Origin: an uncultured Acidobacteriota bacterium
Lineage (GTDB): Bacteria > Acidobacteriota > UBA6911 > RPQK01 > JAPXNP01
NCBI GenBank assembly: GCA_963777605.1
Contig: CAVZRV010000035.1
Location: 268,962 to 332,961, forward strand
Length of the DNA stretch: 64,000 nucleotides
Direction: 5' to 3'
A model generated the notes under the pieces. It worked only from the letters and a program-made list of their open reading frames with translations. It searched no databases and was not told the origin of the DNA. This document shows positions 1-61,859 of this stretch, piece after piece. Position 1 is the stretch's first letter. Every line of letters starts with the position of its first letter. Made by a program: the position numbers and the translations under genes.

Positions 1-5183
<5,183 letters not shown>

Positions 5184-28359: not shown

Positions 28360-28365
28360 CCCGGT

Positions 28366-29277: not shown

Positions 29278-29299
29278 TTGTGCTCCGTCGTTTTAGTAC

Positions 29300-30793
29300 T
29301 TAGTAAGCTCCGCGGCCGCGCACGACTGCGGGTATGGTCTGGATGAAAAGGATCTGGAGGTCGAGCCAGACACTGTAGTTGCGAATGTAGTACATGTCGA
29401 GTTTGACGCGTTCCTGGTAAGAAAGGTCGGAACGTCCCGAAACCTGCCAGAGTCCGGTGATCCCGGGCTTGACCGTGAGCAGGTTGAGTTTCTGCCGCCC
29501 GTACTTGCCCGACTCTTCAGGGCTGATCATGCGGGGACCCACCAGCCCCATCTGACCCAGCAGCACGTTGAAGAGCTGGGGCATTTCGTCGAGGCTGTAC
29601 TTCCTCAGCCACTGCCCGACCCGGGTGATCCGGGGATCGTCCCTCAGCTTGTGCTCCCGGTGCAGCTCTTCGACCAGTTCCGGTCGCTGTTTGAGGATTT
29701 CGTCGCCGTTGACGTGCATGGTGCGAAACTTGAAAGCATCGAAGCTCCGTCCCGAGACGCCCAGAACGTGACGGCGGTGAAGAACCGGACCTTTTGAGTC
29801 GAGCTTGATCAAAATCGCGATGGCGACGAACAGCGGTGAGAGGAAGATCAGCGCAAGAGCCGTGATGGCGTATTCGACTGCCGTCTTGAGGTAGACCTCC
29901 TCCGGATCGAGGCGAATCTTCTTCAGGTTGACCAGCGGGACCGATCCCAGCGTGAGGACTTGAACCTTGGTGGTCAACAGTTCGTAGAGCCCGGTCGAAA
30001 GCCGCAGGTGGACGTTGGGGAGTTCGTTGACCTCTTCGCAGAGGCGGAGAAGCTCCCGGCGGTTGAGTGCAGTGATTGAAACGACCAGGTCTTCGATCCC
30101 GTAACGGGCGATCACTTTACGGATCTCGTTGACCATCCCCAAAACCGGCTGCCCTCCAAGGACAGAGCGGTCGAATCCCTTGTCAGTAGCCACGAAGCCG
30201 GCGATTCGAAGCCCGGACTGGCGCCAGTCCGCCAGATCTTCGGCCAGGGTCAGGGCCTCCCGGTTGGTCCCCACGATCACCGAGGGCACCAGCAGGTAGC
30301 CCCTGGCCCGCAACCAGTAGACCGCTCTCCGGAGAACGAAACGGTTCAGGCTGAGGAGGAGGAAGGAGACGATCCATGCCATGAGCACGAAGAACCGGGA
30401 CACCACGAAGGGAGGCACGAAGAAGGTCGCCAGCACGACGACCATGGTCCCGATGGTGCAGGCATTGAGAATTCGTTTGTATTCCGATACCCCACCGAGA
30501 ATCCGGTGCAGGTCGTAGAGGTTGAAGACGACCAGTACGAGGATGAAGAGGGGCACCAGGACCGCCGCCAGGCTGGGGTAGAACAAGGGATCGGGGACGA
30601 TCTCGGGCGACAGCGACCAGTTCAGGTCGAATCGGAACCAGAATGCGATTCGAAATGCCAGGCCGAGCGCCACCGCGTCGGTGACCAGCAGGACCAGCCT
30701 GAGAATGCGCCGCTGTATCGGCAGAGCCATGGCGACCTTTTGAGGGAGAGATCGCATTCTCGCAAAGGGAAGACTATCGATTCGGACGTTCAC
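29300..30793 (-). CDS. Priming undecaprenyl-phosphate sugar phosphotransferase (WcaJ/WbaP family)
   Basis: N-terminal TM helices, a CoA-binding-like segment, then FKFRTM, DDPRITRVGQWLRKYSLDEMPQLFNVL, VKPGITGLWQVSGRS. Confidence 0.93.
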   Translation of the reverse strand: MNVRIDSLPFARMRSLPQKVAMALPIQRRILRLVLLVTDAVALGLAFRIAFWFRFDLNWSLSPEIVPDPLFYPSLAAVLVPLFILVLVVFNLYDLHRILGGVSEYKRILNACTIGTMVVVLATFFVPPFVVSRFFVLMAWIVSFLLLSLNRFVLRRAVYWLRARGYLLVPSVIVGTNREALTLAEDLADWRQSGLRIAGFVATDKGFDRSVLGGQPVLGMVNEIRKVIARYGIEDLVVSITALNRRELLRLCEEVNELPNVHLRLSTGLYELLTTKVQVLTLGSVPLVNLKKIRLDPEEVYLKTAVEYAITALALIFLSPLFVAIAILIKLDSKGPVLHRRHVLGVSGRSFDAFKFRTMHVNGDEILKQRPELVEELHREHKLRDDPRITRVGQWLRKYSLDEMPQLFNVLLGQMGLVGPRMISPEESGKYGRQKLNLLTVKPGITGLWQVSGRSDLSYQERVKLDMYYIRNYSVWLDLQILFIQTIPAVVRGRGAY

Positions 30794-32237
30794 AGGACAT
30801 CCCTTTCGTAAAAGCACCCACCTTGGCGGTGGGACGGTTGATTTCAGACAGGTTCAGCCGGGGCCCGAGCAGTTCATAGGCCCGGGACATGGCGACCGCA
30901 GCGAACAGAATGGTCAGTGCATCGACCGGGACCCGGTATCGAACCAGGGCCCAGGTCCCCAGGTGGAGAAGGGTGTAGGCACCCGCCAGACCGAGAAGCA
31001 GCACCGTTCCCTCCCGGGAACGTCCTTCATGATCTGCCAGGCTTGAGGAACCCTTCCTGTTGCCGGTGGCGGAGCAGCCATTCACGCCCCCACCCGGCAG
31101 CGCGCCGACAGGCCGGAACCTTGCCAGGCTCAGTACCAGGCCCGCGAGCATGAACGGCAGGCAGACTCCGAACGAGCCGACCCGGGAGAGGTTGCTCACC
31201 AGTCCCGAATCGGGTGTCGGCCAGAATTTGAAGTACTCCACGGCACGGCTGGCCGACAGCACCAGGTAACGCACCGGGTCGGCGAGGACGAACCCGATCC
31301 CCCTCTGCATCAGCGCCTGGTCAAGCGCCGCCTCGCTCAGGTGACGCAGATCGTCGGGGATGAGGTCGCCGTAGCCCGGCGTTCCCGAACCCGACTCAGC
31401 ACCCGGCAGGATGGGGATGAAGAAGTAGCCGTGAATCGGGTGGTTCCCCCAGAAGAAGGCAAAGCCGGCGTTCGTGTTGAGCAGAACCAGGCGATCAAAA
31501 GCCCGGTAGTTGCGGACCGTCCAGGGAACGATCATGAACCCGATCACCAGCAGCGAAACCGCGCCTCCCCGGGCAAACCGCTTCAACCCGCCGGAGGAGA
31601 TCCCGGGCTTCCAGGCAAGCTGCCACCCCAGGTAGAGCAGGACCAGGGGCACCATGAAGAGGAATACCTGTCGCAGGAGCACCGTGCACCCGAGCGCCAG
31701 GCCCAGGTGCACCCAGGAACCGACGCGGATCGAGCCGGCCGGCTTCGCCGCCATCGTGGTGGCGCGGTCGAGTGCCCAGAGAATTGCCACGAGGTAGAAG
31801 GTCTCCGTGATCAGGGAACCCGCGTAGTAAACAAAGTAGGCATACACAGCGGCGATCCCGGCCCCGATCAGCCCCACCCTTTCACCGAAAAAGCGACTCC
31901 CGAGCCGCCAGGTGAGCCAGGGCTGCAGCAGTCCGGCCAGCACCGCCTGGAGCAATCGCGCGACCAGGGGGTGAATTCCGACTGCGGCATAGACCGCTGC
32001 CAGGTACAGCACGTAGAGGAAACTCCAGTGCGCGGTCGGCTCTCCGGCCCGGGTCGCCGGCCACCAGCCGGTCCCGAAACTGAATCCGTGCCCCTCCAGA
32101 ACCCGAACGGCCAGCTCGTGATAAGACACCTGGTCGTAGGTCCCCGGCAGGGGAACGACCGAGTCTCCCTGGTAGACAGCCGAAGCTACCCGGAGACAGA
32201 CCGCCACGATCAGGATCACCCGCATAACTCGATTCAC
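30774..32237 (-). CDS. Multi-TM GT-C fold glycosyltransferase (ArnT/PMT_2-like)
   Basis: GTG start overlaps the upstream stop; DQVSYHELA, PTAHWSFLY, LITETFY, PWTVRNY, NAGFAFFWGN, RYRVP. Confidence 0.8.
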   Translation of the reverse strand: MNRVMRVILIVAVCLRVASAVYQGDSVVPLPGTYDQVSYHELAVRVLEGHGFSFGTGWWPATRAGEPTAHWSFLYVLYLAAVYAAVGIHPLVARLLQAVLAGLLQPWLTWRLGSRFFGERVGLIGAGIAAVYAYFVYYAGSLITETFYLVAILWALDRATTMAAKPAGSIRVGSWVHLGLALGCTVLLRQVFLFMVPLVLLYLGWQLAWKPGISSGGLKRFARGGAVSLLVIGFMIVPWTVRNYRAFDRLVLLNTNAGFAFFWGNHPIHGYFFIPILPGAESGSGTPGYGDLIPDDLRHLSEAALDQALMQRGIGFVLADPVRYLVLSASRAVEYFKFWPTPDSGLVSNLSRVGSFGVCLPFMLAGLVLSLARFRPVGALPGGGVNGCSATGNRKGSSSLADHEGRSREGTVLLLGLAGAYTLLHLGTWALVRYRVPVDALTILFAAVAMSRAYELLGPRLNLSEINRPTAKVGAFTKGMSCERPNR

Positions 32238-38373: not shown

Positions 38374-40050
38374 CTACCTCCCCAACGCCCATCCGAGATG
38401 CTCGACCCCAACCCGGACGGCCCGCTTGAAGGTGTGCAGGTCCGAGGCCAGCATCTTGAGGTAGGTCACCGCAGGGCCGGGACGGAAGGCCCACTCCCGG
38501 AACGCCCGCCGCTGCCAGTAGGTCAGGTCCTCGGCCGACAGGTTGTCGTACTGCAGGACGGTTTCCTTGTCCATATCGACCTGCTCCCACCGGGTCCCTT
38601 CCCGGAACCAGCCGTTTTTCACGACCTCGAAGAAGAAGGGGGTCCCCGGGTAGGGGGCGGCCACGTGGAAAAGGGCCAACTCGAGGGGCAGCGTCTTCGA
38701 CAGCGCGATGGTTTCCTGGATGGTCTCCACGGTCTCTCCGGGCAGCCCGATGATGAAATAACCCCAGTTCTTGATTCCCGCCTGGCGCGCCCACAGGAGA
38801 GCTTCCCGGGCCTTTTTCGGGTTGGCTCCCTTGGCCGCCTTCCTGAGGATCAACTCGTTGCCGCTCTCGATGCCCCACGAGATCATCCAGCAGCCCGCCT
38901 TCCCCATCATCCGCAGCATCTCCTCGTCCACGAAATCGACCCGGCTGTTGCAGGTCCAGCGCAGCTTCAACCCTTCTTTCAGGATACCTTCACAGATCCC
39001 GATCACCTGGTCCCGGTTGACCGTAAACAAGTCGGCATACATGTGGATGTTGCGGATGCCAAGGCCGTAAAGGATTTTCAGTTCCTCGACAACCCGTTCC
39101 GGGGTCAGCAGCCGCACCGACCACTGGTAGGAGACGTGCTTGATGCAGTACTTGCAGCCGGCCGGGCAACCGCGGCTGGTAAGAACAAAGCAGAAGGGCC
39201 CCTTCATCAGGGGCATCCGGTACTGGTCGAGCGGCAGCAGATCGTAGCGGGGGACGGGAAGGTCGTTGAGGTCGCGCACGAAACTCCGGTCCAGGTTGCG
39301 CCGGACCTCGCCGCGGTCTCGCCAGACCAGTCCCTTGACCCGGGAGAGGTCACCGGTTCCCGGCGTATCGGTCGAGTCCGGGACAGGCTCCCAGCCGGGG
39401 TCCGCCGCTTTGAAGAGCGCTTCCACCCACTCCGGGCGGTCGTTCTGGCGCCCTTCCAGGACGTCGATCAGCTCCCTCAGGGTCAACTCAGGCTCTCCGC
39501 GGAGGACGAAGTCGAGGGCGGGGAAGTCCCGCATCGTCTCGTTGGGCATCGGCGTAACGTGGGTTCCGAAGGCCATCGTCCGGGCCCCGATCGAGCGGGC
39601 CAGCATGACCCCGTACATGTCGTTGGTCAGGGTCGGGGCCGTCGCCTGGGTCAGGTAGTAGCGGGGGGCCTTTTCCCTCAGGATCTCCTCGAACCGGGCC
39701 CAGGACATGCGCTCGGCAATCGCGTCCACGACGGCGACCGAGTAGTCGGGTTCCAGCATGGCGGCCAGTTGTGCCAGGGAACACTGCGGCCAGACCATCT
39801 CCTCGCGGCTGCGCCGGCCGACCCGGTGCTGGGTGCGAATCCAGATTCCGCCGTCGGGCGAGGGAGGGTTCACCAGGAGGACATCGACTGTCCCTGGCGG
39901 CCGTGTTTTCCGGGAGTCTTCCACAACGGCCCCCGCGTCGGGGAACTGGGCCTCCTTGAGCGGCCGGACCCCCCGGGTTCCCAGGTTGTGCCGGAGATGA
40001 TCCGGGATTTCGTTGCGTGCTCTTTTATTCTTGTCGTTGGTATCGGTCAA
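38374..40050 (-). CDS. Cobalamin-binding-domain radical SAM protein (HpnJ/BchE-like architecture)
   Basis: DVLLVNPP, FGTHVT, DFVLRGEPE, TSRGCPAGCKYC (CxxxCxxC), WGIESGNE, GYFIIGLPGET, PYPGTPF. Confidence 0.92.
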   Translation of the reverse strand: MTDTNDKNKRARNEIPDHLRHNLGTRGVRPLKEAQFPDAGAVVEDSRKTRPPGTVDVLLVNPPSPDGGIWIRTQHRVGRRSREEMVWPQCSLAQLAAMLEPDYSVAVVDAIAERMSWARFEEILREKAPRYYLTQATAPTLTNDMYGVMLARSIGARTMAFGTHVTPMPNETMRDFPALDFVLRGEPELTLRELIDVLEGRQNDRPEWVEALFKAADPGWEPVPDSTDTPGTGDLSRVKGLVWRDRGEVRRNLDRSFVRDLNDLPVPRYDLLPLDQYRMPLMKGPFCFVLTSRGCPAGCKYCIKHVSYQWSVRLLTPERVVEELKILYGLGIRNIHMYADLFTVNRDQVIGICEGILKEGLKLRWTCNSRVDFVDEEMLRMMGKAGCWMISWGIESGNELILRKAAKGANPKKAREALLWARQAGIKNWGYFIIGLPGETVETIQETIALSKTLPLELALFHVAAPYPGTPFFFEVVKNGWFREGTRWEQVDMDKETVLQYDNLSAEDLTYWQRRAFREWAFRPGPAVTYLKMLASDLHTFKRAVRVGVEHLGWALGR

Positions 40051-47517: not shown

Positions 47518-48072
47518 CTATGCCTTGAATCGTCTTGCGGCTTCCGCAACCACACACCCCAGGCTGAGTAGCAACAACGACACGGGTTCAGGCGTCGGTA
47601 CGGCACTCGCAGCCTGCTGCTCAAGGCCCGACCTCGTTGGTAAGTTGGCTGAGATCGAGGCGTAACTCCAGCCCGAACCACTCCAAGAAACCCGCAGTGC
47701 CTCAAGGAGTGAGTCTCCCCAGAAAGCGAAGAAGTTGAACACCAGCGAAGTCGATTTAGAACCCTCGAAAACGATGTCGAAGTCGAGGCTTGTCAAAGCT
47801 ACCCCGGAAGCAAGCGCCAAAGACGGTGTATCATACGTCAGCGCCCAGCTAGCAACGCTGAAATTGCGCATAGCCGGCGTCTCGAACGGTCCATTCTGGA
47901 CCAGTTGCAGGGCAACAAAATCGAAGCTGCCAACCCCACTTTCATTAAACCGTTGCCCCCAGCTATTGGTCACGTAAGGACTCCCAACAGCTACGACATC
48001 CCCGAATGTGGGTGACACGAATACCACCATCAAAACCGTTAGAAGAGAAATTAGAATCAGAATCCGTCTCAT
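47518..48072 (-). CDS. PEP-CTERM sorting-domain protein 1
   Basis: Signal peptide, GGAGG RBS, C-terminal VPTPEPVSLLLLSLGCVVAEAARRFKA. Confidence 0.85.
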   Translation of the reverse strand: MRRILILISLLTVLMVVFVSPTFGDVVAVGSPYVTNSWGQRFNESGVGSFDFVALQLVQNGPFETPAMRNFSVASWALTYDTPSLALASGVALTSLDFDIVFEGSKSTSLVFNFFAFWGDSLLEALRVSWSGSGWSYASISANLPTRSGLEQQAASAVPTPEPVSLLLLSLGCVVAEAARRFKA

Positions 48073-48134: not shown

Positions 48135-48150
48135 TGCAAGCTTCGGGCCA
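48135..48150 (-). promoter_or_regulatory. Sigma54 promoter of PEP-CTERM gene 1
   Basis: Minus strand TGGCCCGAAGCTTGCA. Confidence 0.65.
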
Positions 48151-49508: not shown

Positions 49509-49524
49509 TGGATCGAGTCTTGCA
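49509..49524 (+). promoter_or_regulatory. Sigma54 promoter of PEP-CTERM gene 2
   Basis: TGGATCGAGTCTTGCA (GG-N10-GC). Confidence 0.5.
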
Positions 49525-49595: not shown

Positions 49596-50251
49596 ATGAA
49601 GAAACTAGTACTTGCGTCTTTCTTATGTCTGGCGATCTCATTCTTTATCGCCAGCCCAGCCATGGCTGACAATGTCACGGTTCAGTACACCGGTGTCTAC
49701 GGCACCACTGTTTCGATCGGGGAACATGGCACACTGGGCCTGTCTTAGCCGGAATCTACAAGATCAAAGTGGACGGCGTTCCGGTGGATTCCTTCTGTAT
49801 CGATCTCTCGGACAGTTCAACAACTTCCGCTGTGCCTTATAAGGAAGTCAATCTCGAAGACGCAGCAGATCCCACCTTCGGCCCGATGGGTATCGCAAAG
49901 GCCACATGGGTAAAGAAGCTTTGGGACATGGCATATTCATCGGGCATGTCCCAGAATGATGCGGCCGCTCTTCAGGTTGCTATCTGGGAAGTGGTCGCCG
50001 ACGATACCTGGGACCTGACTGCTGGCAATTTCACCGTCGGCACTGATGCAATTCGTAGCTTGGCCGGGACGCTCCTGACCAACGTGCTGAGTCATGATGG
50101 CCAGGCCAATCTTGGTGCGGTCAGCAACCCGGTGGTTGACGGAACCCAGCCTCAATATCAGGACTACGTAGTCCAGACGCCTGAACCGGCTACTTTGCTT
50201 TTCCTCGGCGCAGGGTTGCTTGGTCTCGGAATCCTCCGCCGCAGAGCGTAA
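49596..50251 (+). CDS. PEP-CTERM protein 2 with thioester-domain-like motifs (5' part frameshifted)
   Basis: AAGGAGG RBS, ATG 49596 MKKLVL; SFCIDL, ALQVAIWE, YQDYV, TPEPATLLFLGAGLLGLGILRRRA. Confidence 0.88.
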
Positions 50252-50280
50252 CCCGTCCATTAATTCTGGAGCTAGCGGTA

Positions 50281-50310
50281 ACGAAAGGCGGCCACGTGGC
50301 CGCCTTTCGT
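50281..50310. terminator. Perfect 30-bp palindrome, probable bidirectional terminator
   Basis: acgaaaggcggccac/gtggccgcctttcgt. Confidence 0.75.
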
Positions 50311-51197
50311 CGTTCTTGACTTTCCAGATCTCTCGACAGCATCGAAAGATCTGGAAGGAAACAGCATTTTCAGGAACACCTCCTCGTGCCACATTAGCTG
50401 CCGGGCAGCCAGCGCATCCACTTAGCGCAAGATGACATAGGCCGTGGATGCAGCCAACCGAAGCCCAGTTGTTCAAGCATTCCGCCACCGATCGCAACTA
50501 ACCTGCATCCAGCAGAACGGACCCGAAATGCCGACCCGCGCCATTTCTGAGATCGATATTCAGGCCGTACCACCCAGTAGATTGGAAATTCTTCCATACG
50601 GAACCAATATCTCAGCCTCAATTGATTTGTCCGCGCATTCTGAAGCAGGTATCGGCTGGAATTCTTGAACTGAAAAGCAGAATCCCTTTTCGGAGTTCCC
50701 AACTCTGCTCTGGCTGCACCTTTTGACCTCTTGAGAAGGGGCCTTCCGGGCAAGTGATATGTCTGACACAAACACCCTCGCCTCAAGACTCGAAGTCAGC
50801 ATCTAGTGTCCTGCAAGGCATCATATGACGCTTTCAGAGTCCCTGCTGGGCTCCTCGGCATGGGCCGGCATCAGCAGGAAGCAATCCTGACGGCAGGGCG
50901 CCAGTCAATTCCTGACGACTGGTGACGGGGGATCACGATTCTGCCTGGGGTCCGACCGGGCGGACCTCGGGCTGCGTGAGTTTGTTGGAGGCGGGAAACA
51001 AGGCCTCGCGGGCGATGGCCCTTTTACAGGTGGGAATGAAGTTAATGCCGCTTTGCGCCAACCTCGGCGCCTTGGCGCCTCAGTGGTGAGCAGCCCAGGG
51101 GCGCTACCATGAATTGCAAAGAGCGGGAGCGCCCCGCAAGCGGAGAGAGATCAGGTCTTGACAGTGTCCACAGTGCCATGCAACCCGGGGGCGCGTT

Positions 51198-51282
51198 CCT
51201 TACCCCCGGCTCTGTGTCCGGCACCGAACCGCGCTACCGCCGGAACCTCGGAACTTCGGAACCAGGAACCAGGAACCAGGAA
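51198..51282. repeat. Dispersed REP-like element plus GGAACCA-type heptamers
   Basis: ccttacccccggctctgtgtccggcacc.aaccgcgc recurs inverted at ~54129-54206 and direct at ~58220-58298. Confidence 0.85.
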
Positions 51283-51288
51283 GAAATA

Positions 51289-52654
51289 CTACCCCCGCAC
51301 GATCCCCAGCTTGTCGATCATCTCGTAGAGCGTGGGGCGGCTGATGCCGAGTTCTTCGGCGGCGCGGGACATGTTTCCGTCGCAGCGGGCCAGGGCGGAT
51401 TCGACCATTTCCTTTTCCAGGGCTTCCCGGGCTTCCCGCAGGTTCATGGCGGCGTACTTCGAATAGCCGGAGTCGAACCCGAGGTCGTCGAGCGAGACTC
51501 GCTGTCCTTCGGCCATGATGACCGCGCGCCGGACCCGGTTTTCCAGCTCCCGGACGTTTCCGGGCCAGCGGTATTCGCGGATCGCCTTGAGGGCATCGCC
51601 GTTGAAGCCGGTCACCTTGCGGCCGCTCTCCTCGGCGTAGCGCTGCAGGAAAGCGCTGGCCAGCAGGGCGACGTCCTCTGCCCGATCCCGCAAAGGGGGT
51701 ACGTCGATCACGATCACGGCGAGGCGGTAGTAGAGGTCCTCGCGGAAGCTCCCCGCCTTGAGCGCCTCCTCCATGTTGATGTTGGTGGCCGCCACCACCC
51801 GCGCGTCAACGTCCATCAGCTGGCGTCCTCCGACTCGCTGGATCTGCCCGTCCTGGAGGAAGCGCAGCATCTTGACCTGGAGACTCAGCGGAAGCTCCCC
51901 GATCTCGTCGAGGAACAGGGTCCCGCCCCGGGCGCTTTCCAGCTGCCCCGGGCGCTGGGTGTGCGCGCCGGTGAAGGCTCCCTTTTCGTGACCGAAGAGT
52001 TCGCTCTCGAGGAGGTTTTCGGGAATCGCCCCGCAGTTGATGGGAACGAACGGTTCCCTGCGAACGCCTCGAGCGCTGGTGGATGGCCCGGGCCGCCAGT
52101 TCCTTGCCGGTTCCGCTCTCGCCGACAACCAGGACGGGGGCGTCGCTGCGGGCGACCTTACGGACCATGGTGAAGACCTGGTCGATGGCGCGGCTCGTCC
52201 CCAGCATCCCCTCGAACGTGTCGGGACTCCAGGCCCGCCGGAGCCGCTGGTGGTCCTTTTCCAGGTCGTAGACGTAGCAGGCGCGCTCAAGGACCACCTT
52301 GAGCACCTCGATGTCGATCGGCTTGGAGAAGAAATCGTAAGCCCCCTGACCCACGGCCTTCAGGGCAAACTCCCGTTCTCCCTGGCCGGTGATCACCACC
52401 ACCTTGACGTCCGGGTCGAGGGTCAGCAGTTCGTCGAGGGTCTTGAAGCCCTCGATGACGTCGGCGGGATGGGGAGGCAGGCCGAGATCGAGGCAGACCA
52501 CGGCGCTGCCGTTCTTCTTCAGTTGTTCGACGGCTGTTTCCCGGTCCCCGGCCTCGACGACCTCGTAATCGTCATTCAGGGCCCACTTCATCTGGGACCG
52601 GATGTCTTCGTCGTCGTCAACAATCAGCAGATGAGGTTTCTTTCTTGATCCCAT
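51289..52654 (-). CDS. prsR: PEP-CTERM-box sigma54-dependent response regulator (frameshift near 52065)
   Basis: [81 protein letters not shown]. Confidence 0.9.
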
Positions 52655-52698
52655 GGTTTTCCCTTCATTATCGGCCGTTCGGCCCGTCCCGGTAGGGG

Positions 52699-53092
52699 GG
52701 CGCTGCGCGCCGTTCCTGGTTTCTGGTTCCTGGTTCCATGCCGAAACTTCCCCATTCAACGTAGGATCAAGCGTCCCCGCTTGTCGTGTAGTGAATCGGG
52801 AATCGGGAATCGGGAATCGGGAATCGGGAATCGGGATCCGGAATCGGGAATCGGGAATCGGATTCAGAGAATTGCCCGGTTCACGGTTCCGCGTTCAACG
52901 CTTCGCGACCAATCACAAATCAAAAATCGTAGATCACAAATGTTCCAGCTTTTCCCCAACAAATCGAAAGTCGTAAGTCGCAAATCGAGAATGTTCCCCA
53001 GCCCAAAACCCGAAACCCAAAACCCGAAACCCAAAACCCGAAACCCGAAACCAGAAACCAGAAACCAGAAACCAGAAACGGCGCGCAGCGCC
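52699..53092. repeat. Inverted-repeat-bounded unit filled with several heptamer arrays
   Basis: 30-bp IR (1 mismatch) ggcgctgcgcgccgtt[c/t]ctggtttctggtt. Inside: (GGGAATC)n at 52794-52866, AAATCRY units, (AAACCCG/AAACCAG)n at 53005-53079, REP hairpin at 52761-52785. Confidence 0.85.
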
Positions 53093-53198
53093 TATCACTC
53101 CTCAACTACTCACATTACTTACCCAACTTCCCACCTCGAACCCGTCCACAACCGTCAAAACCCTTATTCCATCGACACTTTACACTGATGGCATCTCT

Positions 53199-53214
53199 TG
53201 GCATGCCGATTGCT
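53199..53214 (+). promoter_or_regulatory. Sigma54 promoter of PEP-CTERM gene 3
   Basis: TGGCATGCCGATTGCT. Confidence 0.75.
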
Positions 53215-53277
53215 ACTAGTGCCCCGTCGATTACACACATGGATAGTGACTCGAGAAACATGGAGGTACATACGAAG

Positions 53278-53916
53278 ATGAAGATGAGAAAGCTCTTTTT
53301 CCTGATCAGCATTGTGCTACTGCTCTGCGGCAGCTCCGCCATGGCGGACCAGATCAAGGTCTCCTGGATCGGAGTGGGCGACGGCAGCGTGAACATCACT
53401 CTCAACAACGGCGGCAGCTGGGAAGCAGTTGCGGCCGGCAAGATCAAAATCACCGTCAACAACAGCCAGGTCATTTACGGCTACTGCGTCGACCTGGCCC
53501 ACACCATCGACTGGAACGTCAACTACGACGCCACCTTCAAGCCGACTCCGACGACCCTGGCCAAAGCCGCCTGGTTGATCAACACGTACGGTGCGGGAGT
53601 CGGCAACGACAGCACCCAGGCCGCGGCGTTGCAGCTGGCGATCTGGAACACCCTGATCGAAAGCGACGCGAGCATCACGGGCGGGACCTTCCGCGCCACC
53701 GGGATCTCTACGGCCGTCGGAACCACCGCCAACAACATGCTCGCCGCCCTCTACCAGGGCAACTGGCAGAGCGCCTCGGCAACCCTGATCGACACGGACA
53801 ATGTCAGAACCGGCTACACCCAGGATTTCATTACCACTCCGGAACCGACAAGCCTGGTCCTGCTCGGTTCGGGCCTGCTGCTCTTCGGTCTCTACCGGAA
53901 ACGCAGCGCAGTCTAG
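53278..53916 (+). CDS. PEP-CTERM protein 3 with thioester-domain-like motifs
   Basis: GGAGGT RBS; signal peptide; GYCVDL, ALQLAIWN, TQDFI, TPEPTSLVLLGSGLLLFGLYRKRSAV. Confidence 0.92.
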   Translation: MKMRKLFFLISIVLLLCGSSAMADQIKVSWIGVGDGSVNITLNNGGSWEAVAAGKIKITVNNSQVIYGYCVDLAHTIDWNVNYDATFKPTPTTLAKAAWLINTYGAGVGNDSTQAAALQLAIWNTLIESDASITGGTFRATGISTAVGTTANNMLAALYQGNWQSASATLIDTDNVRTGYTQDFITTPEPTSLVLLGSGLLLFGLYRKRSAV

Positions 53917-53942
53917 CAATCGCATTCGTTTCTCGAGTCATT

Positions 53943-53976
53943 CCCCGGGCGGCGCCCAGCGCCGTTCCGGGGTTTT
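53943..53976 (+). terminator. Rho-independent terminator
   Basis: ccccgggcggcgc-cca-gcgccgttccgggg followed by tttt. Confidence 0.65.
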
Positions 53977-53999
53977 ACTCACGGTCGGGGAGGGTTCGA

Positions 54000-54298
54000 A
54001 GTTCCTGGTTCCGGGTTCCAAGGTTCCAAGGTTCCAAGGTTCCGGGTTCCAAGGTTCCGGGTTCCAAGGTTCCGGGTTCGAAGGTTCCGGGGTTCGAAGG
54101 TTCCGGGGTTCAAGGTTCCGGGGTTCCGGCGGGTAGCGCGGTTTGGTGCCGGACACAGAGCCGGGGGTAAGGCGAAGCCGCGGCCCCGGGTTCCCGGCCC
54201 GATACCCATTGCGGGAATCGAGGAATCGGGAATCGGGAATCGGGAATCGGGAATCGGGAATCGGGAATCGGGAATCGGGAATCGGGAATCGGGAATCG
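54000..54298. repeat. Heptamer arrays (GGTTCCR-type at 54000-54128; (GGAATCG)11 at 54222-54298) around a REP-like element
   Basis: Read directly. Confidence 0.95.
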
Positions 54299-54575
54299 GG
54301 TAGGAAGTGTCCCCGTTCCACGTTCATTGTTCAAGGGGAAAACCGCACAAATGGCGAAAACCCCCGCGCCGCCCCCGCAAAAACCTTCTGCCAGTGCGAC
54401 AAGGGGCTCAAGGTTCCCACGTTCCATGTTCAAGCGGGACACCGCACAAAACCCGACCAACCCCCGCGCCGAACGCAAACCCATTTCCTGCCCCGGCCCA
54501 AACCGGAGTCGGCGCAGGCTCATTTCCAGCCCTGGGCAACGCCCAGGGAAACCCCCGGCCCCCCCAAAAAAATCC

Positions 54576-54818
54576 CAGCGTTGAAAGCGCGATTCAATCC
54601 CGCAAGCACCACTCTTCGAACGCAACCCGGTGCCGCCGAAGAAGCTTCCGCAACTCATCCTGGAACGTCTCCCGGCGACAATGCTTTTCCTGGCGTTCGA
54701 TATACCTGACCGCCGGTCCAGCCCACTCGGGCTCGCTGAAAATGACGTGCAGGACGACCTGACTCAGGGATTGCGGCATGGTGGCGGTTTCTCTGATTGA
54801 ATCGCGCTTTCAGCGCTG
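54576..54818 (-). mobile_element. Internally deleted IS200/IS605-type (Y1/RAYT-like) transposase remnant between inverted REP-like repeats
   Basis: ORF 54594-54779 joins MPQSLSQVVLHVIFS directly to AVRYIERQEKHCRRETFQDELRKLLRRHRVAFEE..D. 24-bp IR cagcg[t/c]tgaaagcgcgattcaatc; agccctgggcaacgcccaggg hairpin at ~54528-54548. Confidence 0.78.
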
Positions 54819-55084
54819 TATCTCTACTCGATCTCCAGCTACTGCCCACCCTGGATCTTGCCTCCAGCCCCAGCGCCCCCGGCCTCCGGCAGCACTTCCG
54901 GAGACTCGCCATCGTCCGGAGCCGCGCTTGCAAGAGACCGGAGACGGGAGACGGGAGAATTTTCTAACCTGGGAAAGTTGGAACGTTCTCACCTTGAACG
55001 TGAACCCCGCTCCGCAATGGTTGAAGGTTCTGGCCACGGTGTCAGGCGGGGACCTGTCCCACCCCGAAACGGCGCGAAGCGGAG

Positions 55085-57660
55085 CTACCCCTCCACCCTC
55101 GGGATCCGTACCCGGAACAGGGTGCCGACGCCGGGGGTCGATTCCACCTCGATGCGGCCGCCGTGGGCTTCCACGATCATCCGGGACTGGAACAACCCGA
55201 TCCCCATCCCCTGCTTCTTGGTGGTCTGAAAGGGCTGAAAGAGCCGCTCGTCGATGAACTCCCGCTCCATCCCGCAGCCGTTGTCTTCAACCTCGAGCAC
55301 CGCCCAACGGTCGTCGCGAAGGGTGCGGACGGTGATAAGGGGCTTCGGAAGGGAAGCGGGAAGCGGGAAGCGGGAAGCGGGAGAACCCGACGACTGTTCT
55401 TTGCCCCCGGCAACTACCTGCGGCGGTTCGCCCTCAAAACCCTCCCCCGCCCCTCCTTCGGAATTCTGAATTCTGAATTCTGAATTCCCAATCCCTTCTC
55501 CGCCTTCCTCCCGAATCCCGTTTCCCGAATCCCGTTTCCCGTTTCCCGAATCCTCATTCGCACTTCCCACTTCGCACTTCGCACTTTCCTCGAACGATTC
55601 CCACGCATTGAGCACCAGGTTGACCACGACTTTGCGAAACTGGCGCTCGTCGAGGCGGACCCTGCCGACGGGCCGGCGTTCGAGAACAAGGGCCTCCTCG
55701 ACCTGGGGACGGAGTTCCTCGCAGATCCCGGCCACGGATTCACCAAAGTTCCGGACCTCCAGGACGAGCTCGAGCTTCTCCCGCAGCAGGGACAGCCGCG
55801 AGCACATCCCCTTGATCTTGTCGACGCTCTGTTCGATGGTCCGGAAGGCCTGCTCCCGGAACTCGGCCTTTTCGTAGTGGCGGGGAAGGTTCTGGACGGT
55901 CAGCGAAAGGCGGTTGGCCAGGTTCTTCAGGTCGTGCACGAAGAAGGCCGACATATTGCGGAAGGCCTCCAGTTCCGAGGTCTCGCGCAGGCGGCGGGCC
56001 AGCCGGATGTTCATCAGGAACGAGGCGACCTGGTCGGCCAGGACCTCGAGCAACTCCCGGTCCTCGTACCCAATCGCCTTCCCCCGCACCCGGTCGCCGA
56101 CGGTCAGAACGCCCAGGATCTCGCCCTTCACTTTTAACGGGATCCAGTAGTCGATGCGGGCGGACTCGAACGCGGCGCTTCGCGCCGTTCCTGGTTCCTG
56201 GTTTCTGGTTCCTGGTTCCTGGTTTCTGGTTCCTGGTTTCGAGTTTCGGGTTTCGAGTTTCGGGGGGGAAGCGGGAATGCCCGGAGGCTGCGGTTCGCCT
56301 GTGGCACCCGACTTCGGGCCTTCGCCCTCCTGTCGCCGCGATGTTCCTTCTGAATTCTGAATTCTGAATTCTGAATTCTGGTCTCCCTCCCGTTTCCCGT
56401 TTCCCGTTTCCCGTTTCCCGTTCCTCCCCCCGAAACCTCCCCCGCCACCACTCCGTCTTGCGAAGTCGCCCGCTCCAGCAACCCGGACAGATCGAGCCCG
56501 GCGGCGTCCTCCCGGGTGAGCCCCGTCGAGGCGGCCAGGCGGAGACCGCGGCCGGCGGCATCCAGGGTCCAGACCGAAACGGTCAGGCTGTCGAGGGCCT
56601 GGGCGGTGATCCGGGCCGCCGTCCGGGCCACTTCTTGCTCGTCGAAACGGTCGGTGATCCCCTGGTTGAAGCGGGTCCAGATCCGCCGGTAGTCGTGGGT
56701 GGGACGTTGAAAATGGCGCCGGGTGGCCAGGCGCAGGTCCTGGCGGACCCGGTCGGAAAGGAGAAAGGCCCCGGCCCCGAGCAGGGCCACGAACACCACC
56801 ACCGTCGGCATCTCGACCGGCCAGTCGAGCAGGCGCAGCACCTGGACCACGACTCCGACTCCCACCAGGTAGGCGCCGACGGCCACTATGGTGATCGAGC
56901 CCTGGAGCACCGACTGCGACAGGTAGATGTCGAACTGGAGGGTCCGGCCGCGGCGCAGCGCGATTGCCAACAGCGGAAGGACGCAGAGGAGCGCCCAGGC
57001 CTGGATGACGTGGGCCGAGGAGGACCAGGTCCGAAAGAGGATGGCGTCACTCGACGTGTAGATCACGGCGACCGCATAACCGCCGATCCCCAGGACGGCG
57101 AACTTGATCTGCCAGCGGACCCGCCCGAAGGAGTTGCGCAGGGTCTTTTCGAGGTTGGCCACGACCAATGTGTAAGCCACGATCGTGACCACGAAGAAGA
57201 GGTAGCCGCGCAGCCCGAGAGGCCAGTACCAGGGTCCCAGGGTCCCGGGCTCGAACAGGGCGGCGGTCACCACCCCGTCCCCCGTGGTCTCCCCCCGCAG
57301 CGGCAGGCTCGCGAAGAACTGGTCCACCGGTAAGAAGATCAGCAGGAGGGGGACAACAACCGTCCCAATCAGGACGCTCTTCCAGCGCACCAGGAAGTGC
57401 CGCGCGTCGGCCCGGCCGTAGGTCAGGCTGAAGGCCAGCCAGGCCGCCAACAAGAGCCCGCTGACCACCAGCCACGGCAGCTGGATCCCCAGGGTCAGGG
57501 GGCGCTCGACCAGGAACGCCGAAAGGAGCTTCTGCAACCCCTGCAGCATCAATGCCGCAGCCAGTATCGGCCGCACCAGCTGGCCCCGCTCCTGGAACCA
57601 GACAAATGCCGCCAGCGCCAGGCAGCCCAGTGCAACCGTGAGGTGGAGGGTGAAGATCAT
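55085..57660 (-). CDS. prsK: PEP-CTERM system histidine kinase with two repeat-derived insertions and a frameshift near 56135-56450
   Basis: N-terminal TM region, RHF...HDYRRIW..F, GAF, FRNMSAFFVHDLKNLA (H-box), NLVLNA, EDNGCGMEREFI..LFQPFQTTKKQGMGIGLFQSR. Confidence 0.9.
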
Positions 57661-57758
57661 TGTCGTTGGTGAATCGGGAATCGGGAATCGGGAATCGGGG
57701 CCGCTGCGCGCCGTTTCTGGTTCAAAGTTCCTCGTTCCATGTTCGTGGTTTCGGGCCC

Positions 57759-58414
57759 GGCGTGGCACAGGCGTCCCGCCTGTGACCATGCCGAAACCTG
57801 TGTCGTTGCGGTGCGATGTTCCATCTTCAACGTTTCACGTTCCTGGTTCCGGGTTTCGGGGGGTGCTTCGCGCCGTTCCGGGTTCCGGGTTCCAATCGAA
57901 CTTCGCACTTCGGTTTCCCTGTTCGCCGTCGTCATTCGATGTTCGCCCTTCCACGTTCCGGGTTCCGAGGTTTCGGGTTCCGGGTTCAACATTCCGGGTC
58001 CATCGTTCAGCGTTCTATATTCCACGTAAGATGGACAAGGTTTCAAGCCCCAAGTTCGTGGTCAGCCCCGCTTGCGGGGCGGAATGGAGTAGCCCAGGAT
58101 GGAGCCGAAGGCAAAATCCTGGGTGACCCGGTATGCTTCCATCCCAAGTCCCGCCCCGGCGGGACGACATGGTTTGGACCGGGAGACCGGAGAATGTCCC
58201 GATTCCCGCACACCGCGCTGGGTACCGTGCCGGGAACCCGGGGCCGCGGCTTCGCCTTACCCCCGGCTCTGTGTCCGGCACCAAACCGCGCCACCGCCGA
58301 AACTTCGAAACCCGAAACCCGAAACCTCGGAACCTCGGAACTCGGACCTCGAAACGGCGCGCTGCACCAGCCACGATCGTGCCATGGTCACAGGCGGGAC
58401 GCCTGTGCCACGCC
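57759..58414. repeat. REP doublet (32-bp perfect IR) enclosing heptamer arrays and two other REP-like elements; flanked by (GGGAATC)4 and (GAAACCA/GGAACCA)~11
   Basis: ggcgtggcacaggcgtcccgcctgtgaccatg at 57759-57790, inverted at 58383-58414; 58063-58172 resembles part of the 35.7/37.6/40.1 kb repeat. Confidence 0.88.
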
Positions 58415-58504
58415 ACGCACCTCGAAACCAGAAACCAGAAACCAGAAACCAGAAACCAGAAACCAGGAAAAACCAGGAACCAGGAACCAGGAACCAGGAA
58501 CCAC

Positions 58505-59608
58505 CTACCCGAAGTGCCGGTACAGCACGCTCCCGGCAAGCCGCAACAGCGGGAGCGGGCATCGCGACACGATCCGGCGGAGGGCGGGACTTCCCACCAG
58601 CCCCGGACCCCCGTCCGTCACGCAGCGATCCCGAAAGTAGACCAGTTCCCGCGGGCGTCCTCCCAGGCGCTCCTTGAACGTGGCCAGCCCCCGGTTGTCG
58701 AGGTCGCAGCGCCCCAGGTCGAAAACCCGCATCCCCTGCTCGCAGGCCGCCTCGATCGCCCGCCAGAAGAGGAGCGGCGTTCCGCCCAGCGCATTGAAGC
58801 GCTCGTCCGAGGCCCCGTACTTGTAGACCAGCCGGTCCCGGAAGGCCAGGGTGACGATCCCCGCCACCGGCCGCGAGCCGTGGTAAGCCACCCGGAACCG
58901 CACCGACTCGGGAAGGCACTCCGCCAGATTTCGAAACCAGGCGAAGGGCTGAGGAGGCACCCCCTGCCGCCGCCGGGTGAGTTGGTGCAGCCAGTAATAA
59001 TCATTAATAAGGGCGGCGTCTTTCGCGCCTTCGCGGTAAACGACCCCCTCCCGCTCCGCCCGCCGAACCTTCCTCCGGATGCAGTCCCGGTGCAACCCGT
59101 CCCAAACCGCCCCTGCTCCCACGCCGAGGTCGATCTCGTGGTAGAGAAACCGCGAGCACACCCGAAACCCAGACTCCGCCGGCCACGACGCCTCGTCGAA
59201 CGAAAGCGGCCGGAGCTCGGTGTAACGGTAACCCGCTCCCGGAAAAGATGAAGCCAGCGCCCGCAACAGTGCCGCCAACTCCTCCCCGGAACCGACCAGC
59301 GGATCGGCATGATCGGAAAACGGCAACCCCACCAACCGGCGTCCGGTCAGCCGGCTGGAGCAGCGGCAAAACACAATACCGCCCGAAATCGGCTCTTCCG
59401 AATCGGACGATGTAACCCCCACCGGTTCGAACCCATAGGTCCGAGACAGGGCCTCGAGCCATCCCCGGGAGTGAAACACGGTTCCCAGCGGATGGCTGTC
59501 GCCCTGTTCGCGCCAGGATGGATCGGTCAAGGGGTTGAATGTCCGCACCGAAAGGATTGCGGCATTCGGCACCCCCGTGGACGGCACCTCCTCGGTCCGG
59601 CCCTTCAT
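58505..59608 (-). CDS. FemAB-like GNAT family protein (Acetyltransf_6)
   Basis: VFHSRGWLEALSRTYG, LVGLPFSDHADPL, IRRKVRRAEREGV, LTRRRQGVPPQP, FDLGRCDLDNRGLATFKERLG. Confidence 0.85.
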   Translation of the reverse strand: MKGRTEEVPSTGVPNAAILSVRTFNPLTDPSWREQGDSHPLGTVFHSRGWLEALSRTYGFEPVGVTSSDSEEPISGGIVFCRCSSRLTGRRLVGLPFSDHADPLVGSGEELAALLRALASSFPGAGYRYTELRPLSFDEASWPAESGFRVCSRFLYHEIDLGVGAGAVWDGLHRDCIRRKVRRAEREGVVYREGAKDAALINDYYWLHQLTRRRQGVPPQPFAWFRNLAECLPESVRFRVAYHGSRPVAGIVTLAFRDRLVYKYGASDERFNALGGTPLLFWRAIEAACEQGMRVFDLGRCDLDNRGLATFKERLGGRPRELVYFRDRCVTDGGPGLVGSPALRRIVSRCPLPLLRLAGSVLYRHFG

Positions 59609-59621
59609 CGCCAGGCTCCAG

Positions 59622-59638
59622 TGTCGTCCATCCTTACA
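59622..59638. promoter_or_regulatory. Candidate PrsR enhancer palindrome
   Basis: TGTCGTCCATCCTTACA (reverse complement TGTAA-N7-CGACA). Confidence 0.5.
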
Positions 59639-59852
59639 CTTCTATTGCAGGTACTGGTTAGTCCACGACCCGTTGTGACAGTACGCCCAAACTGGAGCAA
59701 CCGGGGAGTCTCCTGGTCAGGTATTCCAACGGAATCCTTAACACACGGTCCCCACGGCTGCGTCTTCGAAAACTTCAGCCCCAATGGGCCACCAAACCGC
59801 AAACCCCTTATTGACAACAACTTGAAAATAGACGAGCAGTCCGTTGCGGCTC

Positions 59853-59868
59853 TGGCGCCATTATTGCC
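59853..59868 (+). promoter_or_regulatory. Sigma54 promoter of PEP-CTERM gene 4
   Basis: TGGCGCCATTATTGCC. Confidence 0.68.
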
Positions 59869-59946
59869 TACATTTATGTTGTGACTGATTTCTGGAAGTT
59901 TGAATTGAAATTGCATTCTATAGAACTAGCGAATCGAGAGGGTTAA

Positions 59947-60610
59947 ATGAGGAAATTCTTATTCTTAGCTTTAGCACTTGTATCGGTATTCGGTTTGGTT
60001 GGAAGTAAAGCCGTAGCTAATCCCGTGAACTCTGGGGATATCATTAAGGTATACGACGTCTCTCCTGGGACACTTGCAGGGGTCTATAAGATAGTCGACC
60101 TCACGAATGGTAACGTCCCTTACACATTTTGTTTGGAGCATAACGAGTATTTTGCAACAGGCGCTCAATTGAAGGTGGACGATGTAAGCGGTGACGTCAT
60201 CCAACGTGGAGGACTGGGTACGATTGCCCTCCCGACACCGTTGCCTGGCTTTTTGTTCAGTGGAGCCAGGGCACACTGACGGGCTACACCGGCGACAATC
60301 TTTCGCGCGGATGGCTTGCAGTCGGCAATCTGGAACCTGATGGGTTATGGAGCGATCGGGGGCGGCACGGTGAGCCAAAGCCCAGGACTTTCTTAATCTT
60401 GCCGCCGCTGCGTCGGCTGCGGACCTTGCGGCTGCACAGGCTAAAGTCAGTGTCATCAACCCGGTCTGGGACGCCGGCCGCGCTGATCCCTATGCCGACG
60501 GGACCCGGGCGCAAAGTTTTCTGCAGGTGGTTCCGGAACCTACCTCGCTGCTCCTGCTGGGCAGTGGGCTCCTGGGACTGGGATTCTTCGGACGGAAGCG
60601 GCGGTCCTGA
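59947..60610 (+). CDS. PEP-CTERM protein 4 with thioester-domain-like motifs (frameshifted)
   Basis: Signal peptide MRKFLFLALAL; TFCLEH; GLQSAIWN (~60313-60336); AQSFLQVVPEPTSLLLLGSGLLGLGFFGRKRRS-TGA. Confidence 0.85.
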
Positions 60611-60645
60611 CCCCGCGCTGAGTCGTTCACATTCGAATATCACGG

Positions 60646-60671
60646 AAAGGGCCGCCCATGCGGCCCTTTTT
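60646..60671. terminator. Bidirectional Rho-independent terminator
   Basis: aaagggccgc-ccat-gcggcccttttt between convergent genes. Confidence 0.75.
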
Positions 60672-60773
60672 CTTGCACTCTGACTCCATCAGGAACTGCG
60701 ATCATAAGCTGTGATTCCAGGCTCTCACCGGTCGATCGAGCCCCTTGCTGAACGCCGGGAATACCCTTCCGCT

Positions 60774-61859
60774 TTATCCATTCACCCATTCCAGGAGCTT
60801 GCGAAAGGGAGCGCGACTCAGCAGCGAGGCTCCGCCCGACTTCATGAATGCCCCCCAGCGCAGGACCGTACAGGCACCGTGGGCCGGAAGAGGAAGCAAG
60901 TGTTCCGCCGAAGCCGAGCTTGAAAAACCCGATTCCGTCAAGAGTGGGCGTGACGACTCCGCCTTCCCGGATGGCCCTGGCCGCCGCCTCGGGCAGCCAG
61001 ACAAAATCAAGCACGCTCAGCCCGCTTCTCCTGCCCCAGTTGATTACCTCCCACCAGAGCCGTTCCTTGGGATACAACTCCGGGAACCGGCCGTTCCAGC
61101 CGATCTTCCAACAGCGCAGGAGGCCTCCGAAGGCAAAGCTGAACATCGCAGCCACCGGCTCTCCACCGCGTTCGAGAAGGAAGAGCCCCGCCCAACCTCG
61201 GTGCCCCATCTGCAGCCACACCCTCTTGAAGAAATCGGGTTGGGGCGGAGTCGGACTAGAGTTGCGGCGGCGGCAGATCTCGAGCATCAGACGACGGAAG
61301 GTCTCCACATCTTCTTTGCCTCCCTCCCTGAATGTGAAGTCATTTCGCAGCGAACGCCGGATGTGCTTTCGCGTCGAAGACCGCATCGATGCGAGGATCT
61401 CCTCGGGACTCGGGCGCAGGTCCAGGAGCAGCGTGTTCTCGACCAGGCCCGTCGGCGGAACGCCCGGTATCGGCGGACTGAAGCCGAGGCTGTCCAGGTC
61501 CCCCGAAAGGTCCGGGCCAGGCAGAGGAGGCTGCACAACGAGGTAAGCCAGCCGATGCTCGCGAAAGAACTCCCGAATTCCGGCGGCCCCCGAAATAAGG
61601 GTCCGAGGGTGATCATCCCGGAGCACAGGCCCAAAAGGAGAGAGCCGACGCTGAAACCAACCCGGTGGCGGCGGACCAGCACCTGTCCTCCGGCCACAGC
61701 CATCCCGTCTCCACCAACCACCCAGCGCTCGGCCGACCATCCGTAAGCCTGCTTCACCTTTGCCCAGGCCACGGTCTGCTCGTGATGGGGGGTCTGCGAG
61801 TTCTCGACGAAGTGGCCCCAGTCACCGTCAGAGACCGATCGCAAGCGAATCGAATTCAA
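60774..61859 (-). CDS. FemAB/FemX-like peptidyl-/acyltransferase (frameshifted)
   Basis: WGHFV...HHEQTVAWAKVK, TLLLDLRPSPEEILASMRSSTRKHIRR, LWWEVINWG, GFFKLGFGG. Confidence 0.8.

Follow-up and report, generated by a model that had tools for sequence, protein, structure and literature searches.

Candidate single-domain thioester proteins with PEP-CTERM tails in an uncultured Acidobacteriota bacterium and other diderm bacteria

We analysed a 64,000-nucleotide stretch (the window; contig CAVZRV010000035.1, positions 268,962 to 332,961) from the genome of an uncultured Acidobacteriota bacterium (GCA_963777605.1; 6.73 Mb in 53 contigs, 96.7% complete, 5.68% contamination). The window is a polysaccharide locus of the XrtA type, with Wza-like exporters, a Wzc-like kinase, a priming transferase and stp1/2/3-type glycosyltransferases, and it holds four PEP-CTERM or PEP-CTERM-like genes, designated PEP1 to PEP4 (Table 1). 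PEP2, PEP3 and PEP4, which have N-terminal signal peptides visible in translation, carry the Cys and Gln motifs that are the subject of this analysis and that resemble those of the thioester domains (TEDs) described from Gram-positive bacteria; every motif set that a first-pass annotation of the DNA had quoted for the three proteins is found in translation where it had been placed. Genes for the histidine kinase PrsK and the response regulator PrsR sit between the PEP genes. The genome encodes the diderm marker BamA (449 bits) and has one match to the exosortase model TIGR02602 (118.2 bits; cut-off 105.55), located outside the window on contig C7.

Table 1. Features of the window discussed in the text (positions within the window)
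Feature	Position	Strand	Description
WecE-type aminotransferase	14498-15709		554.6 bits
ATP-grasp enzyme	17252-18340		288.6 bits
PEP1	47518-48072	-	PEP-CTERM-like, not TED-like: no Cys in mature domain
Sigma-54-like element, PEP1	48135-48150		62 nt upstream
Sigma-54-like element, PEP2	49509-49524	+	TGGATCGAGTCTTGCA; 71 nt upstream of start; 2 mismatches
PEP2, 5' piece	49596-49748	+	Start codon, signal peptide (MKKLVLASFLCLAISFFIASPAMA...), first strands; ends at stop 49746-49748
PEP2, 3' piece	49739-50251	+	Different frame (open 49670-50251); TED-like domain, ALQVAIW, PEP-CTERM tail
PEP2 Cys codon	49796-49798	+	
PEP2 Gln codon	50159-50161	+	
PrsR, PEP-CTERM-box sigma-54 response regulator	51289-52759	-	TIGR02915 in pieces 1-192 and 189-444; two frames
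Sigma-54-like element, PEP3	53199-53214	+	TGGCATGCCGATTGCT; 63 nt upstream of start; 1 mismatch
PEP3	53278-53916	+	Single open gene, 212 aa; the only uninterrupted gene among PEP2, PEP3 and PEP4
PEP3 layout			Translation: signal peptide 1-23; TED-like domain 24-186; PEP-CTERM tail 187-212
PEP3 Cys70 codon	53485-53487	+	
PEP3 helix motif	53629-53646	+	LQLAIW
PEP3 Gln182 codon	53821-53823	+	
PrsK histidine kinase	55085-57789	-	TIGR02916 in pieces 6-374 and 420-679; two frames
FemAB-family XrtA/PEP-CTERM-associated protein	58505-59608	-	TIGR03019 105 bits (cut-off 260); Pfam Acetyltransf_6, FemAB
Sigma-54-like element, PEP4	59853-59868	+	TGGCGCCATTATTGCC; 78 nt upstream of start; 2 mismatches
PEP4	59947-60610	+	Divergent PEP-CTERM gene spread over two or three frames
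PEP4, signal peptide and FCLEH	59947-60276		
PEP4, TGA	60277-60279		
PEP4, GLQSAIW	60280-60393		
PEP4, AQSFLQVVPEP tail	60374-60610		
Second FemAB-like or GNAT protein	60640-61740	-	Acetyltransf_6 63.9 bits, FemAB 24.3 bits; directly after PEP4

Translation of PEP3 gives the motifs YGYCVDL, AALQLAIW and YTQDFITTPEP in that order, with YCVDL at residues 69-73, ALQLAIW at 117-123, TQDFI at 181-185 and TPEP at 187-190. Cys17 lies inside the signal peptide and Cys70 is alone in the mature chain, as the first-pass annotation had claimed. The tail matches the Pfam PEP-CTERM model (PF07589) at 22.6 bits, above the cut-off of 20.7. Residues 68-137 align to positions 2-75 of the Pfam TED profile (PF08341; 19.5 bits, E 0.0013), so that the Cys motif falls at the start of the profile. 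No NCBIfam model covers the mature domain, and only the tail is matched; matches to named PEP-CTERM families, PepA included, are limited to residues 179-210 and reach 24.3 bits (cut-off 80). Neighbours in the ESM Atlas are clusters of 'hypothetical protein', annotated with PEP-CTERM or VPDSG-CTERM only.

With residues 24-186 of PEP3 as the query, a full HMMER scan (E ≤ 0.001) recovered 257 cluster representatives, nearly all of 200-250 aa. Conservation was assessed in an alignment of 149 sequences, the first by identifier out of 160 family proteins of 170-300 aa, in which the best-kept columns, in PEP3 numbering, were W123 (149 sequences), C70 and Q182 (146 each), A121 (143), Q119 (142) and D72 (136); C70 and Q182 occurred together in 144. 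A profile built from the 149 sequences gave 210 bits for PEP3 and 114.6 bits for PEP2, and the motif pattern shared by these two proteins is therefore not a product of chance. Outside the shared motifs PEP2 and PEP3 diverge, being 28% identical, which bears out the earlier description of these proteins. The Pfam PEP-CTERM tail was present in 121 of the 149 members and VPDSG-CTERM in 3. At E ≤ 0.01, 63 members matched Pfam TED (best 1.2e-6), and one relative of 631 aa scored 31.5 bits, exceeding the 22-bit cut-off under which the majority of members fall, PEP3 among them.

Starting from a 13-sequence alignment, we confirmed 59 loci of the family in species genomes, which by their record titles belong to Acidobacteriota, Planctomycetota, Verrucomicrobiota, Desulfobacterota, Armatimonadota, Pseudomonadota and Myxococcales (Myxococcota). 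Among 40 relatives of the source genome (E ≤ 1e-8), a family match was found in 6 of the 15 belonging to the same taxonomic family and in none of the 25 from other families of the order. In two giant adhesin-like proteins, P0067 (3220 aa) and P0103 (2542 aa), which have SdrD_B, DUF11 and C-terminal RTX repeats, the TED-like domain is present internally two or three times; the domain therefore occurs also within stalked proteins resembling type I secretion substrates.

The AlphaFold model of PEP3 (AF2; predicted local distance difference test score, pLDDT, 90.4; predicted template modelling score, pTM, 0.84) runs from strands (residues 26-89) through three helices (92-108, 112-127 and 145-160) to further strands (169-186), which is the order given for TEDs in Walden 2015. 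YCVD (69-72) closes the strand 64-70, ALQLAIWNT lies in the helix 112-127 and TQDFI (181-185) lies beside the strand 184-186; the family thus holds all three TED motifs in the TED order and in the TED secondary-structure context. When the PEP3 model was compared with the Protein Data Bank (PDB) using Foldseek, the ten best matches were all TEDs, and realignment of Foldseek's matches with VIA-align gave 11 TED entries at Z scores of 9.0-12.8, the next best match reaching 3.5. In an independent VIA-align run against 48,161 representative PDB chains, 8 chains aligned with PEP3 at Z ≥ 5, all of them TEDs (Z 8.8-12.8, 139-160 residues aligned; next best 4.5), and a model of the PEP2 domain piece (pLDDT 82.8) retrieved the same 8 chains at Z 8.3-11.2, with the next best at 3.8. 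The comparison of a PEP3 model with TED structures had been put forward in the first-pass annotation, and TEDs are the only structures that match. On these models, PEP3 and PEP2 have the TED fold.

[quoted passage not shown] A residue mapping that is approximate, because it is derived from alignment end points only, places the Gln of CpTIE and PnTIE, 8 residues ahead of the aligned end, exactly at Gln182 of PEP3 and Gln141 of the PEP2 piece, and their Cys within 3-4 residues of the PEP2 Cys. The choice of the C-terminal Gln as the thioester partner, made in the first-pass annotation, agrees with the published pairs. The Gln of the QxAIW helix was considered for the same role and is ruled out by Walden 2015, which places the thioester Gln in the C-terminal strand.

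We propose, with a probability of roughly 0.62, that diderm bacteria have a large family of single-domain TEDs, unannotated as such and with a predicted thioester, to which PEP3 and PEP2 belong. The earlier view of these two proteins as compact TED-like domains displayed on exosortase cargo in a diderm is supported by their sequences, by the modelled fold and by the presence of BamA, an exosortase and Wza-like exporters in the genome. Several results weigh on the other side. Foldseek taken alone gave weak values (E 3e-3 to 9e-3, TM score 0.40-0.47), and the residue correspondence is as approximate as stated above. PEP3 lies under the 22-bit gathering threshold of Pfam TED, at 19.5 bits and at 21.5 bits in the genome scan; the Thr of the TQxxPhiW helix motif is replaced by Leu in 134 of the 149 family members; and sequence searches of the PDB, with the family profile and with the relative scoring best on Pfam TED, returned no TED chain. 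PEP4 reaches only 10.8 bits in its N-terminal part, and its sole detectable relative in 16 family-bearing genomes is a 35% match in which Ser replaces the Cys and the QxAIW motif is missing. Finally, the assembly shows PEP2, PEP4, PrsR and PrsK interrupted and rpoB and rpoC whole, and the locus may therefore be inactive in this organism.

The claim that three proteins carry the motifs is not supported as it stands: PEP3 is an intact gene, and PEP2 and PEP4 are broken as assembled. PEP2 carries one frameshift near 49735-49748; its motifs FCIDL, ALQVAIW and YQDYVVQTPEP all fall within a single frame, that of the 3' piece, which accounts for the 114.6 bits cited above, and the 5' piece scores 10.2 bits on profile positions 5-44. 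Its Pfam PEP-CTERM match is 27.6 bits, and its Pfam TED match, 12.9 bits, is under the 22-bit threshold. The condition of PEP4 is more complex. FCLEH and GLQSAIW share the frame of 59947 and are split by the in-frame TGA, AQSFLQVVPEP is in the +1 frame, and the stretch that should link the Cys to the helix motif (DTVAWLF) is best read in the third frame, so that either one stop read-through and one frameshift or three frameshifts are needed to join them. Colinear pieces of PEP4 match the family profile at the 10.8 bits noted for the N-terminal part and at 35.8 bits for the C-terminal part, mostly through the PEP-CTERM tail (30.6 bits in Pfam; cut-off 20.7), and the AWLF piece gives no significant match. 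A search among longer proteins gave no relative of its N-terminal 110 aa. PEP4 may belong to the TED-like family; judged by its sequence, it is too divergent and too broken to place.

The genome has five TED-like genes, of which two are intact, PEP3 and one on contig C27, and three are interrupted, PEP2, PEP4 and a copy on contig C23. Whether the breaks in PEP2, PEP4, PrsR and PrsK are errors of assembly or consensus, so that all three TED-like genes of the window would be intact in the organism, or are real, the locus decaying or being switched off, is in our judgement an even call. Each break is an indel and the correct frames contain no additional nonsense codon, the assembly is of draft quality, with the contig number and contamination given above, and the C23 copy is likewise read in three frames, all of which speak for errors. 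Against this, rpoB and rpoC (about 7 kb) are uninterrupted, so that indels are not spread everywhere in the genome, and a second PrsK/PrsR pair, on C23 (positions 27296-31791), is intact (PrsK, a 717-aa open frame; PrsR, 455 aa and 628 bits). This pair is ~65-75% identical in DNA to that of the window and adjoins the C23 TED-like PEP-CTERM gene. The window PrsR is split by a 1-nt insertion near 52054, judged against the intact orthologue in a relative (L076).

The PrsK break offers a further argument that the interruptions are real. Its two overlapping open frames (57834-56137 and 57046-55088) join, by homology, inside heptamer arrays at 56187-56422, where slippage is plausible; the gain of one heptamer unit or the loss of two restores the frames. 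A second repeat insert (55351-55586) lies in frame within the ATPase domain, and similar repeats break up prsK at the same places in a relative from another genus. The PrsK split may reflect a phase-variable kinase or the insertion of a mini-element. Tandem arrays of 7-nt units, repeated up to 12 times, take up the DNA between genes around PEP3, PrsR and PrsK (51258-58503) and occur also inside prsK, the units including GAATCGG, CCCGAAA, CGGGAAT, GTTCCTG, TTCTGAA, TCCCGTT and GAAACCA. Among perfect arrays of at least 4 copies in the whole genome, 41 have a period of 7, none a period of 5, 6 or 8, and one a period of 9; 16 of the 41 lie on the window's contig, which makes up 5% of the genome.

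All four PEP-CTERM genes of the window have a -24/-12 element on the coding strand 62-78 nt upstream. With GG and GC fixed and at most 2 mismatches to the consensus TGGCAC-N5-TTGCW, 15 such elements occur in the window on both strands; ~0.022 would be expected per gene (P ~2.5e-7 for four of four). In other genomes, a start could be set, crudely, for 55 family genes (the remaining 4 of the 59 loci offering none that was usable), and 13 of the 55 had an element at -200 to -10, vs ~1.4 expected. The genome encodes RpoN (431.9 bits), and a relative of another genus shows the order PrsK-PrsR-PEP-TED-PEP, as in the window. The PEP genes are probably expressed under PrsK/PrsR and sigma-54, as far as promoter sequences and gene order can tell. 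In the relative L076, a unit of ~340 nt bearing the same sigma-54-like element, AGGCACCTCGGGTGCT, is repeated three times (9330, 9674 and 10017) within 9263-10590, downstream of the TED gene.

The design of PEP2 and PEP3 is spare: behind a Sec signal peptide comes a single domain of ~160 residues, and its conserved Gln stands only 5-6 residues ahead of the PEP-CTERM tail. If Gram-positive TEDs are a guide, the domain would fold after export, and Cys70 and Gln182 would form an internal thioester autocatalytically with loss of NH3. Exosortase would process the PEP-CTERM tail and leave the domain at the cell surface, where a primary amine of a target could attack the thioester, so that an amide bond would join the target to Gln182, which stands a few residues away from the anchor. 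A partner enzyme would not be needed, and none is conserved nearby. All-against-all clustering of the neighbours at the 59 loci in other genomes revealed no enzyme family recurring beside family members; the recurrent clusters were the TED genes themselves (56), a sigma-54 regulator (13) and a TPR-like protein (10), and tblastn around the same loci found PrsK at none, a FemAB-like gene at one and the sigma-54 regulator at 10. The lack of a recurring neighbour enzyme agrees with an autocatalytic domain, and a nucleophile supplied by the locus finds no support in it. Inside the taxonomic family of the source organism, the association with PrsK/PrsR is nonetheless seen again, in the relative of another genus and on C23.

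It is unlikely, in our estimate, that the fold has been kept without a reactive thioester, the Cys and Gln serving a stable internal cross-link, folding or exosortase recognition. The last of these roles is conceivable because the Gln is only 5-6 residues from the PEP motif, and since the Gln stands in a conserved stretch that runs straight into that motif, its conservation could belong to the sorting signal; the sub-threshold Pfam TED score of PEP3 and the helix motif without Thr point the same way. However, PEP-CTERM proteins generally lack such a Gln, and PEP1 has neither the Cys nor QD-Phi-Phi. A disulfide is impossible for Cys70, which has no other Cys in the mature chain to pair with. 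Moreover, the joint retention of Cys and Gln in 144 of 149 members affects the positions held in solved TEDs, and these are the two residues that Walden 2015 lists as fully conserved.

The first-pass annotation had further proposed that amine- or amino-acid-installing enzymes of the same locus supply the nucleophile for a covalent protein-polysaccharide envelope, and the functions it named are present: the WecE-type aminotransferase, the ATP-grasp enzyme, three FemAB-like open reading frames (ORFs) and nonribosomal peptide synthetase (NRPS) functions, the last as adenylation-domain fragments. That the TED proteins cross-link the cell to its own exopolysaccharide in this way, through a 4-amino-4,6-dideoxy sugar (WecE-type) or an amino acid that the FemAB-like or ATP-grasp enzymes would attach, nevertheless seems improbable to us. 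In its favour are these genes with their scores (Table 1), the two FemAB-like genes flanking PEP4, the position of the PEP genes inside an XrtA-type polysaccharide locus with PrsK/PrsR, the PrsK-PrsR-PEP-TED-PEP order kept in another genus, and the association of RpoN-dependent PEP-CTERM genes with floc formation (PMC9850573). Synteny gives it no support, since the linkage is not conserved (FemAB-like 1/59, PrsK 0/59) and only the sigma-54 regulator recurs, at 10 to 13 of the 59 loci. In the window itself, the WecE and ATP-grasp genes are ~32-35 kb away from the PEP genes. Amino sugars of the 4-amino-4,6-dideoxy type are, moreover, usually N-acylated.

Returning to the reading of PEP3 and PEP2 as single-domain TEDs, we compared the family with known systems. 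The class I TEDs considered were CpTIE-TED (5A0G), PnTIE-TED (5A0N), SfbI-TED (5A0L), Cpa (2XI9, 4C0Z) and FNE (5DCQ), together with the Pfam family PF08341. PEP3 has the same fold (Z 8.8-10.4, 140-160 residues aligned, root mean square deviation (rmsd) 3.1-4.2 Å), with strands, three helices and strands and with [YFL]C-Phi-zeta, the QxxPhiW helix and Q-zeta-Phi-Phi in the last strand in the same order, and both groups are secreted surface proteins with a C-terminal sorting signal. The differences concern host, anchor and architecture. Class I TEDs belong to Firmicutes or Actinobacteria and carry LPXTG, whereas the family is found in diderm phyla and ends in PEP-CTERM (VPDSG-CTERM in the 3 members noted above); its members are single-domain proteins without a stalk of isopeptide or ester domains, and their Gln is 5-6 residues from the anchor motif. 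In addition, the helix-motif Thr is Leu in the family, most members score below the Pfam threshold, and the thioester is a prediction.

The class II TEDs (TIE proteins of B. anthracis, 6FWV, and S. aureus, 6FX6, and TIE86 of E. faecium, 6FWY) share the core fold and gave the highest Z scores (10.8-12.8), but the top two align at an rmsd of 5.2-5.5 Å, in part by way of the model's C-terminal helix. What defines class II is a beta-sandwich insert (PMC9210967), for which a domain of 160 residues leaves no room. With the PEP-CTERM cargo of floc formers (the PepA family NF033554, RpoN-dependent genes, and PrsK/PrsR of Haft 2006), the window genes have in common a PEP-CTERM tail, a sigma-54-type promoter, adjacent PrsK/PrsR and a polysaccharide locus that includes XrtA-associated glycosyltransferases and FemAB-like genes. 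No relationship extends to the mature domain, the PEP3 match to that cargo being confined to the tail as described above. For alpha-2-macroglobulin and complement C3 there was no structural match above Z 3.0, the value reached by bovine C3 with the PEP2 model. These proteins also have a Cys-Gln thioester that is attacked by amines or hydroxyls, but it is set in a different fold, with a CGEQ-type motif whose reacting residues are adjacent.

Our literature searches found no paper describing a PEP-CTERM TED-like family and none joining TEDs to PEP-CTERM or exosortase; within the portions quoted from, PMC12617251 and PMC9210967 do not describe such a family, and the papers searched, Walden 2015 among them, present TEDs solely as a Gram-positive feature. 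What is new here, on the evidence of the models, is that the fold and residues of TEDs occur in another group of hosts, joined to a different anchor and in a minimal architecture; the thioester chemistry is predicted. We know of no biochemical role for any PEP-CTERM cargo protein. If the prediction is right, covalent adhesion chemistry would reach environmental Gram-negative bacteria (hundreds of clusters, at least seven diderm phyla), one class of exosortase substrates would gain a first concrete and readily tested function, and very small (~160 aa), stalk-free thioester modules would become available for protein engineering. A broader model, which we regard as a long shot, is that exosortase cargo of many diderm phyla includes self-activating thioester 'staples', controlled by PrsK/PrsR and sigma-54, that would bond the cell surface covalently to an amine-bearing matrix or substrate, and that heptanucleotide slippage in prsK could turn the entire module on and off in this lineage.

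TED-like genes make up ~5 of the roughly 14 PEP-CTERM genes in the genome. A crude pattern search yielded ~12 genomic PEP-CTERM ORFs, 4 on the 34-kb contig C23 and 4 on the window's contig. Within the window, the NRPS-type adenylation domains (286-5183, minus strand) are present only as fragments, separate ORFs covering profile positions 1-130, 265-409 and 1-317, which is a further sign of interrupted genes. A B12-binding radical SAM protein is encoded in the middle of the polysaccharide locus (38374-40050, minus strand).

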